Source: Escherichia coli (lineage in GTDB: Bacteria; Pseudomonadota; Gammaproteobacteria; Enterobacterales; Enterobacteriaceae). From it: a stretch of 64,000 nucleotides of DNA. How positions within the stretch are numbered: position 1 is the stretch's first letter; the number at the start of each line of letters is the position of its first letter. The notes below the pieces were generated by a model that was not told where the DNA came from, made no database searches, and was given only the letters and a program-made list of their open reading frames with translations. Location of the stretch: the NCBI RefSeq assembly GCF_016026235.1, contig NZ_CP065613.1, one strand, 5' to 3'. Shown piece by piece: positions 26,667 to 28,039 of the stretch. The translations under genes and the position numbers were made by a program.

Positions 26667-26801
26667 TCAGCAGCTCGGATAAGAGCGGAAGTGCTGACGA
26701 ACATGTTCGAGCTCACCGAAACGTATGCGGCAGTAACTGCGCACATAAACCGGCTTGTCGTGTTCGTAGATGAAGTCATCGCGATTAACATCGTGAGCCA
26801 T
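26667..26801 (-). CDS. Small Cys-containing protein (44 aa)
   Basis: ATG with CAGGAG 7 nt upstream; MAHDVNRDDFIYEHDKPVYVRSYCRIRFGELEHVRQHFRSYPSC; ends just before the terminator; below the ORF-track size cutoff. Confidence 0.35.
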   Translation of the reverse strand: MAHDVNRDDFIYEHDKPVYVRSYCRIRFGELEHVRQHFRSYPSC

Positions 26802-26974
26802 AGCTTTTCTCCTGTTTTTGTATACAGCCTGTTTACCCGAACAGGTTGTAGTTTGTTGGGAGAACCGCTATCCTTGGCTTGCGGTTGCCAAGGGTGTAGC
26901 GGTAGGTAATCCTCCATACACTTCGGAAATACTGGATATATTTCCGACCCAAAAAGCCCCGTTCCCTCGGGGCT

Positions 26975-27508
26975 TTATTCTTTTGTTCCGCCATCAATCA
27001 TCGCAAAAGATTCCACAATCAGACTGATACGCTTGGCTTCATCTTTTGTCAGGTCGCGAGGCAGGTTGCCAATGGTGACGATAAGATCTCCGCGCAATGG
27101 AATCGGCAGTTCAAATGTTTTTACACCAACCTGTACGTCAGCTACCGCCTTCTTCTTAGGTGCCATCTTTTTACGCTCCTTTTTTTTATTTACATCACCA
27201 ACTGACACATTAATCTCACCATTCTGGTAGGAGATAAATTTATCAATAGCACTTTGCATTCGGCTTTTGTATGCCTGCAAAGATGATTCAGAAGGTTTGC
27301 TTTCTGCTGAGTCTGCGTACGAACTTGCTAAGTTGGCAACGCTATAATCACGGATATCGGCATCGGTGAAATCCGACCCAAGAACAGTAAGAAGGCGCAG
27401 GGAAGAGTCACGGAGATTGCGGGCTGTAGCATCATTGACGATACCAAGCTCAGGAAGCATCTGTAAGAAGTCCTGAAATGCTTTGATGGTGTAGCTTTTG
27501 GTTTGCAT
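26975..27508 (-). CDS. Hypothetical protein (177 aa) in the lambda rexB position
   Basis: Co-oriented with cI; acidic N-terminal half, Lys-rich linker (KKKERKKMAPKKK); no family recognised. Confidence 0.5.
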   Translation of the reverse strand: MQTKSYTIKAFQDFLQMLPELGIVNDATARNLRDSSLRLLTVLGSDFTDADIRDYSVANLASSYADSAESKPSESSLQAYKSRMQSAIDKFISYQNGEINVSVGDVNKKKERKKMAPKKKAVADVQVGVKTFELPIPLRGDLIVTIGNLPRDLTKDEAKRISLIVESFAMIDGGTKE

Positions 27509-27697
27509 AAAAAAGCCTCATACAGTTGATGAGACAATACTAATTTGATCGTCAAAACAAATCAAGACCCAAGAAACGATCGTTGATTCCTTTCTTTGTG
27601 ACAATACAGTCAAATCAAGTTTTACAAGGATTACTTTTCTTCGATTACATTAAAGGCCGCACTTCTGCGACCATCCATCACCAAAATGTCTCTTCAC

Positions 27698-28039
27698 TCA
27701 TCCGAAGAAGCAGCAATCCGGGTCAGCACGCACAAGCTCAAGCGCATCAGTCAGCGAAAGTTCAGTACTGTACTGATGCCATTTCATATCCTTCCGCATC
27801 CAATAGATTTTCCATCTATCCAGAGAACGTATGTACTTGATTCTTGCTGATGGCAGGATGTTTGTTTCACCTGGGTTGCCCTGCCACACGGGGCGCTGTT
27901 CGCCGATATCTATCGTTTGGTCATTGATGCTATAAACAATATCCAGTTCATTGCGGATATGTTCAGGCGGCCTTATGCTTTCAATGAATTGGTGAACTTC
28001 TTTTTTGACCGCTTGATATTCAAGGTCAGTGAACGCCAT
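27698..28039 (-). CDS. DUF3024-like protein (113 aa) in the lambda rexA position
   Basis: Strong RBS GAGGAGGA; starts 37 bp after the cI stop; motifs RPPEHIR..ELD...WKIYWMRKDMKWHQY...CCFFG resemble DUF3024 as recalled. Confidence 0.5.
   Translation of the reverse strand: MAFTDLEYQAVKKEVHQFIESIRPPEHIRNELDIVYSINDQTIDIGEQRPVWQGNPGETNILPSARIKYIRSLDRWKIYWMRKDMKWHQYSTELSLTDALELVRADPDCCFFG

Follow-up and report, generated by a model that had tools for sequence, protein, structure and literature searches.

The slot between the repressor gene and N of lambdoid prophages has earlier yielded RexAB, Stk and BstA, and the Stk kinase of the Shiga toxin (Stx) phage 933W reportedly confers abortive infection against HK97. 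The repressor-to-n region is described as a moron hotspot (PMC7067206). In lambda the accessory genes that the lysogen carries at this place are rexA and rexB, on the same strand as cI and between it and OL/PL (PMC7067206), and the accessory gene of BstA in the Salmonella prophage BTP1, which is expressed in the lysogen, lies directly 3' of the repressor gene (PMC7067206; PMC8585504). We analyzed the same position in a 64,000-nucleotide (nt) stretch of Escherichia coli DNA (contig NZ_CP065613.1), which at its full length is called the window here. The host element is a lambdoid prophage of the Stx1 type, similar to phage SH2026Stx1. In its mosaic cI-to-PL hotspot (26667-28039) three open reading frames (ORFs) of 113, 177 and 44 amino acids (aa) were confirmed, all on the minus strand between cI and OL/PL. 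The original prediction regarded them as a single module that is transcribed together with cI and is a candidate for a novel defence or exclusion function.

Two independent accessory units

The interval consists of two independent accessory units: the DUF3024 gene, which encodes the 113-aa protein (Unit 1), and a cassette formed by the gene of the 177-aa protein, a structured spacer and the 44-aa ORF (Unit 2). The cassette is an uncharacterized occupant of a known hotspot and the DUF3024 gene is an already known candidate. The whole 1.5-kb interval is 99.1% identical to gp19-gp21 of Escherichia phage SH2026Stx1, all annotated as hypothetical or DUF3024 proteins, and 99.9% identical to E. coli O39:NM F8704-2. 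Only 5 of 5,426 complete E. coli genomes hold the three genes together and the two units are far more often found apart. The DUF3024 segment (27654-28088) shows 97% nucleotide identity to 933W and about 90 other Stx phages and is present in 228 complete genomes. Homology with 933W stops at 27654, just beyond a terminator-like hairpin that closes the first unit. Since the gene order of 933W is cI, L0084 (DUF3024), L0083, stk, L0081 and tM, the window has the same first gene followed by other cargo. In a hidden Markov model (HMM) scan of all fetched loci, the near-identical E. coli phages were the only set with DUF3024 next to the large gene of the cassette; DUF3024 without the pair is seen in 933W and in Erwinia, Rahnella, Yersinia and Salmonella loci.

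The pair is in turn found without DUF3024 at several kinds of site. These are a Salmonella position 3' of a dinI-family gene, next to pepN (79% identity), an element with D5-primase and single-stranded DNA-binding protein genes (45% identity), islands resembling capsid-forming phage-inducible chromosomal islands (cf-PICI) with integrase, alpA, primase, capsid, protease and portal genes, nin regions, and four further cI-to-N slots of different immunity types. In Yersinia phage YP3 the cassette stands beside the gin invertase and tail fibre genes and has lost its small ORF. VT2-Sakai (Sp5) and about 46 other Stx phage records carry the cassette as 'orf22', with 39% identity, and the Sakai-type large gene is conserved at 99% or more in 234 of the 5,426 complete E. 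coli genomes. The DUF3024 gene that lies between cI and orf22 in VT2-Sakai is a frameshifted pseudogene with an internal stop.

A single operon driven by PRM, in which cI, DUF3024 and the genes of the 177-aa and 44-aa proteins are transcribed together and the three products jointly form a Rex-like exclusion system, would agree with the strand and slot, which are those of rexAB, with the lack of a terminator between cI and DUF3024, and with the joint presence of the three genes at 99% identity in SH2026Stx1 and the five complete genomes. The hairpin after DUF3024 has a degraded U-run (TTTAATGT), so that read-through is possible. We nevertheless judge this arrangement very improbable: the two units are mostly separate, the Sakai-type phages keep the pair intact beside a DUF3024 pseudogene, and there is no membrane protein among the products, unlike RexB. 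Thus the single-module part of the original prediction was not upheld. Cotranscription of all three genes with cI became doubtful as well, since DUF3024 is followed by a terminator-like hairpin and the 177-aa gene has a conserved promoter-like site ahead of it. The prediction had overlooked this hairpin and the 190-nt gap that separates the two genes, as well as a second hairpin, with a U-run, between the 177-aa gene and the 44-aa ORF. The features of the slot are as follows:

28077-28814, minus strand: ORF of the cI-type repressor (helix-turn-helix and S24 peptidase domains; phrog_4 transcriptional repressor, 8e-54), a context gene
27698-28039, minus strand: Unit 1, ORF of the 113-aa DUF3024 protein, 37 nt 3' of the cI stop codon, with a GAGGAGG ribosome-binding site (RBS)
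27655-27672, minus strand: terminator-like hairpin GGTCGCAGAAGTGCGGCC with the degraded U-run, closing the cI/DUF3024 unit
27537-27565, minus strand: candidate promoter of the cassette, from an alignment of the upstream regions of five loci
26975-27508, minus strand: Unit 2 gene 1, ORF of the 177-aa protein (phrog_2602)
26953-26976, minus strand: H1, GC hairpin AAAGCCCCG..CGGGGCTTT followed by further U's, overlapping the stop codon of the 177-aa gene
26802-26974, minus strand: structured spacer of 173 nt with hairpins H1-H4 (minimum free energy -70.3 kcal/mol)
26855-26922, minus strand: H3, three-tier hairpin with the invariant 3'-arm motif ATAGCGGTT, matched by covariance model R1
26859-26871, minus strand: 3' arm of H3, AUAGCGGUUCUCC, complementary to the Shine-Dalgarno and start region (26799-26815) of the 44-aa ORF
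26667-26801, minus strand: Unit 2 gene 2, ORF of the hydrophilic 44-aa protein MAHDVNRDDFIYEHDKPVYVRSYCRIRFGELEHVRQHFRSYPSC (phrog_21154), with two Cys and an AGGAGA Shine-Dalgarno sequence
26621-26649, minus strand: intrinsic terminator at the end of the cassette, GC hairpin ACCCGGC..GCCGGGT with U-run UUUUCUUU
26447 to 26419, minus strand: PL-like promoter from a motif scan, with the OL operator (26421-26437), the right-hand limit of the slot

The terminator predicted ahead of OL/PL was thus found as a hairpin with U-run, and an alignment showed that it is kept with the cassette in Salmonella and in locus L007. With its own conserved terminator and its presence or absence between conserved flanks (933W against the window, and at least five kinds of site), Unit 2 would answer to the definition of a moron, apart from the promoter, for which there is a promoter-like site only.

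In the Salmonella loci L003-L006 (4614-5841) the cassette comes directly after the gene of a 79-aa DinI-family protein, next to pepN and at the border of a prophage or prophage remnant, and DUF3024 is likewise found 3' of dinI genes in Erwinia and Rahnella. A second hotspot, with cargo in common with the one downstream of cI, seems to exist downstream of dinI. As the Salmonella copy follows dinI, we also considered a Gifsy-type antirepressor and dropped the idea, for nothing links the Gifsy antirepressor to these genes. The dinI-linked antirepressor of Gifsy is a different small protein, encoded between dinI and irsA (PMC3121763).

Disrupted copies occur in three E. coli prophage contigs of IMG/VR (L036-L038, around 5001-5533), in which the large gene is split by a frameshift; the small ORF of L037 is replaced by sequence encoding an IS1 InsA-like peptide. 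Either some lysogens can do without the cassette, or these copies contain assembly errors. In the region 3633-3818 of VT2-Sakai (L017; NC_000902.1; the DUF3024 pseudogene is at 2509-2842), a GeneMark ORF of 53 aa, VT2-Sap22, is annotated on the opposite strand, and the record omits the conserved 40-aa ORF (3696-3818), which is on the strand of the cassette. Several public records leave out or misannotate the 44-aa gene and its Sakai counterpart.

The DUF3024 gene as a conserved flank

The 113-aa protein matched Pfam DUF3024 (PF11225) with an E value of 2.7e-31 (residues 4-113 on model positions 2-112), which bears out the original description of a DUF3024-like gene with a strong RBS 37 nt after cI. 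It also matched phrog_3467 and, over its full length, the PADLOC model PDC-S43 (E value 7.2e-42, residues 1-113 on model positions 1-115). Hence the original claim that no product of the interval resembles a named defence system fails for this protein, which is already listed as a PADLOC candidate and is not novel in that sense; it holds for the 177-aa and 44-aa proteins, which gave no PADLOC match. The per-protein HMM and structure searches that had been proposed likewise assigned DUF3024/PDC-S43 and left the other two proteins in families of 'unknown function'.

The 37-nt gap between cI and DUF3024 contains neither a terminator nor a hairpin, and the two genes are likely cotranscribed, to judge from this arrangement. 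An AlphaFold2 (AF2) model of the protein had a mean predicted local distance difference test (pLDDT) score of 90 and an alpha-beta5-alpha fold, that is, a helix, a five-stranded sheet and a second helix. Foldseek searches with this model retrieved nothing but DUF3024 proteins with a single domain, about 115 aa long and spread over many phyla, with template-modelling (TM) scores of 0.9. Across genera the gene was the first one 3' of a repressor or dinI gene and was followed by variable cargo: a Stk-like kinase set in 933W and Erwinia, an AriA/HEC-04-like AAA ATPase with a C5 methylase in Yersinia, a ParA/CbiA-like ATPase in Salmonella and nothing in Rahnella. The Yersinia set, from a Y. enterocolitica prophage (L076, 4599-7430), comprises an AAA_15/AAA_21 ATPase, whose best PADLOC matches are HEC-04 and AriA, and then a C5 cytosine methylase; it may be an uncharacterized defence pair in the same slot.

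DUF3024 is best described as a conserved flank of the hotspot, and its position alone would earn it a defence label by guilt by association. The literature refers to PDC-S43 only as a 'phage defense candidate' and a literature search for DUF3024 found no mention; one for the accession numbers gave nothing relevant either. Caution on the PADLOC candidate seems advisable, as its place at the flank of a defence hotspot may be the only reason why DUF3024 is listed. That DUF3024 is instead an active gene, either a stand-alone defence, as the PDC-S43 label would have it, or a modulator of RecA, the SOS response or the repressor, as its position next to repressor and dinI genes could suggest, appears to us rather unlikely.

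The 177-aa protein

The gene with a Lys-rich linker was confirmed at 26975-27508, its Lys-rich stretch being KKKERKKMAPKKK. Its product has three parts: an N-terminal domain (residues 1-100), the linker (101-128; charge about +6) and a conserved C-terminal motif, FELPIPLRGDLIVTIGNLPRDLTKDEAKRIS, whose 45 residues are the most conserved part of the protein. AF2 predicted a four-helix domain for residues 1-100 (pLDDT about 90), disorder for residues 102-143 and a C-terminus of low confidence, because of which no fold could be assigned to the C-terminal domain. The N-terminal domain resembles the core-binding (SAM-like) N-terminal domain of tyrosine recombinases, and weak matches to Phage_int_SAM_1 were obtained in 8 of 73 family members. 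The catalytic domain of these enzymes (R-H-R-Y) is absent: the protein ends at residue 177 and gave no Phage_integrase match.

A profile search of 1.84 billion cluster representatives returned 1,126 relatives at E<1e-3 and 450 at E<1e-10, nearly all of 160-200 aa and matched over their full length. In PHROGs the protein falls into phrog_2602, a class of unknown function. Remote members came from the two loci obtained by a profile search of genome contigs, those of the cyanobacterium Nodosilinea (L074, 6585-6782) and the marine gammaproteobacterium Pseudohalioglobus (L075, 6545-7138), where predicted membrane proteins follow the large gene in place of the hydrophilic micro-protein. Another side observation is that a remote family member adjoins a HigBA-like pair.

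The 44-aa ORF

A small ORF of 40-57 aa starts 150-175 nt 3' of the large gene in nearly every nonredundant locus. The original description of a Cys-containing ORF of 44 codons proved correct, with two Cys, and it is a real gene: the ratio of nonsynonymous to synonymous substitution rates (dN/dS) across eight loci was 0.01-0.06 at dS values of up to about 1, so that the ORF is coding and its protein is under strong constraint. The small ORFs fall into three types. Type A is that of the window (phrog_21154), with the VT2-Sakai ORF and that of L070 as diverged members; type B is Cys-rich and found in PICI-like islands; type C is strongly basic (phrog_33859) and found in nin regions. Type A proteins are 91-95% identical where the accompanying large proteins are only 45% identical. 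A common ancestry of types A and C was considered and rejected (hhalign probability 0.2%), and binding of the small protein by the C-terminal motif of the large one was not supported, since motif type and small-ORF type are uncoupled.

The layout of large gene, spacer and small ORF is conserved down to 33% protein identity. This is the identity of the large protein of a remote metagenomic relative, which carries the cassette without DUF3024 and has a hairpin-rich spacer of about 140 nt with TTAGTGGATTCC and a type-C-like ORF of 46 aa; since it shares the layout, the three-part arrangement must be old. In a different frame, an ORF of 86 aa (MEDYLPLHPW...; 26657-26917, minus strand) runs across the spacer and the 44-aa ORF; as the Salmonella copies have it shortened to 27 aa, it is probably not a gene.

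A conserved structured spacer

The 173-nt spacer of the window is a conserved structured element, and its folding energy, given above, corresponds to a z score of -7.0. Common to all lineages are a GC hairpin at the stop codon of the large gene, a long three-tier hairpin and a hairpin just 5' of the Shine-Dalgarno sequence. The first of them, H1, is terminator-like in the lineage of the window; other lineages keep the hairpin and not the U-run. The 3' arm of the three-tier hairpin carries ATAGCGG(T/A)T in all lineages. Its inner stem differs fully between lineages yet is self-complementary in each: CCTTGGC/GCCAAGG in the window, TCTATGTCT/AGACGTAGA in L035, TCTTAAG/CTTAAGA in type B and GTACTG/CAGTAC in type C.

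When a named structure of 15 pairs was laid on an unfitted alignment, 63.7% of the cells were paired, against 53.4% in shuffles (none of 500 reached the observed value) and at most 46.7% in slid controls, and the covariation score was 0.27 against 0.16 (again none of 500). Even after fitting only 64% of the cells pair, because one consensus does not fit all lineages, and RNAalifold predicted nothing on mixed-lineage MAFFT alignments. Covariance model R1, built from the unfitted alignment with the manually named structure, gave one match per cassette, always on the sense strand (E values of 1e-8 to 6e-14), including six loci outside the seed, and none in unrelated loci. Its single match in the 64 kb of the window is H3 (50.7 bits, E value 1.5e-10). 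The spacer belongs to no Rfam family: no Rfam match at E<=1 was obtained in the window, and only subthreshold chance matches appeared in three other loci.

The duplex between the 3' arm of H3 and the Shine-Dalgarno and start region of the 44-aa ORF has a predicted energy of -16.1 kcal/mol (z score -6.1) in the window, and covarying equivalents were identified in the type A loci L007, L042, L044 and L034. Occlusion of the RBS by this arm is possible on these grounds.

Sense and antisense strands of the spacer fold equally well, in the window and in other lineages, and neither energies nor G-U counts favour one of them. The hairpins could therefore act as DNA, as protein-binding palindromes or as a site of recombination or exchange; the neighbouring protein with a domain like the core-binding one of recombinases and the exchange of small-ORF types 3' of a conserved spacer would fit such a role. 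However, all R1 matches lie on the sense strand, the 3' arm and the RBS are complementary and covary in type A, and the cassette encodes no catalytic recombinase domain, so that we regard an action at the DNA level as doubtful.

Putative promoter of the cassette

In cI slots the cassette is preceded by a conserved terminator hairpin, GGTCGCAGAgGTGCGGCC, with a T-run. The T-run is degraded in the window and is present as TTTTTT in L017, L042 and L044. About 110 nt 3' of this hairpin a promoter-like site was located, with a -35 TTGATT (27560-27565), a 17-nt spacer and a -10 TAGTAT (27537-27542), overlapped by a TTGAT...ATCAA palindrome. The alignment of upstream regions showed that TTGATT-N17-TAnnAT is conserved in position in the window, L003, L033, L035 and L039. 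Because the site falls below the 9/12 threshold of our promoter scan, a promoter of the cassette is something we infer.

Possible role of the cassette

The slot exchanges cargo that includes recognized defence genes, with known or candidate ones in the same position after DUF3024. This context, which is also that of the rexAB position as the original prediction had it (933W swaps in L0083-stk-L0081, and stk matches PADLOC PD-T4-6/mad6), leads us to favour, if tentatively, the view that the cassette is a lysogen-expressed accessory in conflicts between phages or between mobile elements, that is, in exclusion or defence. DUF3024 would be read through from cI, with variable cargo exchanged beside it, and Unit 2 would be an autonomous moron made up of the promoter-like site, the soluble 177-aa protein, the spacer, the 44-aa protein and the terminator. 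Expressed in the lysogen, it would act against superinfecting phages or rival mobile elements. The large protein could be a constitutively made sensor or regulator and the 44-aa protein a tightly throttled output, kept low until some trigger. The hairpin/terminator that follows gene 1 would do the throttling, together in this lineage with the conserved spacer arm ATAGCGGTTCTCC, which would pair with the RBS of the 44-aa ORF.

A more specific version, to which we give less credence, is an undescribed three-part system in which a noncatalytic core-binding-like protein and a riboregulatory spacer release an exchangeable micro-protein effector that blocks superinfecting phages or rival elements. 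Such a system would be widespread: many bacteria would carry it, in phages, in PICI-like satellites and in other elements, among them the Sp5 Stx2 prophage of O157:H7 Sakai.

Several observations weigh against a defence role or against the parts proposed for it. None of the members of the large family or of the small-ORF types that were tested matches PADLOC, Pfam, NCBIfam or solved PDB structures. The three small-ORF types have no detectable homology to one another, and the C-terminal motif type of the large protein does not track them, so that a direct partnership of the two proteins is unsupported. The N-terminal domain is acidic (pI 4.7), an unusual property in a core-binding domain that binds DNA, the promoter is a weak one with 8/12 consensus positions, the RBS complementarity is absent in spacer types B and C, and the two spacer strands fold alike. 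Moreover, the large gene is frameshifted beside an intact small ORF in L036 and L038.

The main rival, not probable in itself, is that the cassette is a regulatory or nucleic-acid-binding accessory outside defence, either nucleoid-associated-like or a regulator of transcription or translation, with the small protein as a cofactor. Yet presence or absence and replacement by known defence genes are typical of accessory cargo and not of core regulators; the acidity of the N-terminal domain and the frameshifted and IS1-disrupted copies, which mark the cassette as dispensable, also speak against it.

Alternatively, the cassette could be an addiction module resembling toxin-antitoxin systems that stabilizes the element, the 44-aa protein being a toxin held low by RNA structure and the large protein its antagonist or repressor. 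This reading overlaps with abortive-infection defence, and so with the defence role favoured above. The extreme conservation of the small ORF and its two layers of attenuation, H1 with its U-run and the pairing of the RBS, would suit a toxin, the large protein combines a folded N-terminal domain with a low-confidence C-terminal segment as many antitoxins do, and a remote relative has the HigBA-like neighbours mentioned above. But the genes lie 173 nt apart and are uncoupled, the motif does not covary with the small-ORF type, frameshifted large genes coexist with intact small ORFs (L036 and L038), and the small proteins are hydrophilic, unlike known small toxins. We consider an addiction module improbable.

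A large share of Stx phages carry this unstudied cassette in the repressor-to-N slot, and the family of the large protein comprises more than 1,100 sequence clusters without annotation in Pfam, NCBIfam, PHROGs, PADLOC or PDB. If lysogens are protected by the cassette, as we tentatively favour, it would be a new system with an unusual layout of protein, structured spacer and micro-protein, and would matter for how Stx phages compete in pathogenic E. coli.

Neighbourhood of the slot

The true start of cI is likely the ATG at 28784. The operators at 28796-28812 and 28845-28861 (OR) are both matched by the operator GATAACCTAGGTTATAG at 26421-26437, in the OL/PL-like region about 180 nt past the cassette terminator and upstream of an N-like gene (25787-26170). 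A full-length Rfam match to Lambda_thermo, the thermoregulator of cIII, at 24951-25009 (minus strand, 88.5 bits) confirmed the lambda-like layout of the left operon. In the OL region a rightward promoter-like site, CTGATA-18-GATAAT (26466-26495, plus strand), points at the cassette terminator; the 27-nt stretch in which it lies shares 81% identity with the PR region (28865-28891). On the other side of cI, a 398-aa ORF (30063-31259, minus strand), which looks like an IS110-family transposase gene and is probably an insertion sequence interrupting the early-right region, adjoins a short ORF of the replication region (29721-30068).

Comparison with known systems

Among the named families with which the interval was compared (kinase, Rex, recombinase, toxin-antitoxin, Rfam, DUF3024 and PDC-S43), only DUF3024 and PDC-S43 were found. 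PDC-S43 is a single-gene candidate matched end to end by the 113-aa protein, and it is silent on the pair. The 177-aa protein differs from tyrosine recombinases such as lambda Int, XerD and IntI4 in that it has no catalytic domain and that its N-terminal domain is acidic and followed by a basic linker and the unrelated 45-residue motif.

Type II toxin-antitoxin systems share with the cassette a two-gene unit on mobile elements, an upstream product with a folded N-terminal domain and a poorly ordered C-terminus, and palindromes over the promoter-like site. They differ from it in their coupling, by adjacent or overlapping genes and a matched antitoxin C-terminus, which was not found here: a hairpin/terminator lies between the two distant genes, the motif is uncoupled, intact small ORFs accompany frameshifted large genes, and the downstream protein, of 40-57 aa, is of three unrelated types.

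The products are not RexAB-like, all being hydrophilic and soluble by composition and models and the 177-aa and 44-aa proteins having no PADLOC match, a verdict that rests on the absence of a membrane protein, as the PADLOC content of Rex models was left unchecked. Unlike rexAB, the cargo of the window follows DUF3024 and a terminator-like hairpin and has a promoter-like site of its own, and rexAB is not known to have a counterpart to the gene sizes of 177 and 44 aa or to the structured spacer. BstA, whose position is similar to that of the cargo described here, is one larger protein with a different domain make-up, and no PADLOC model matched the proteins of the cassette.

The closest described arrangement is that of 933W. 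No kinase domain was detected by Pfam or PADLOC in any of the three proteins of the window, and L0081 of 933W (54 aa) is unrelated to the 44-aa ORF. The slot itself is identical, with the same DUF3024/L0084 gene (97% nucleotide identity), the same hairpin after it and a terminator before OL/PL, and L0083-stk-L0081 of 933W are replaced in the window by the cassette of the 177-aa and 44-aa proteins.

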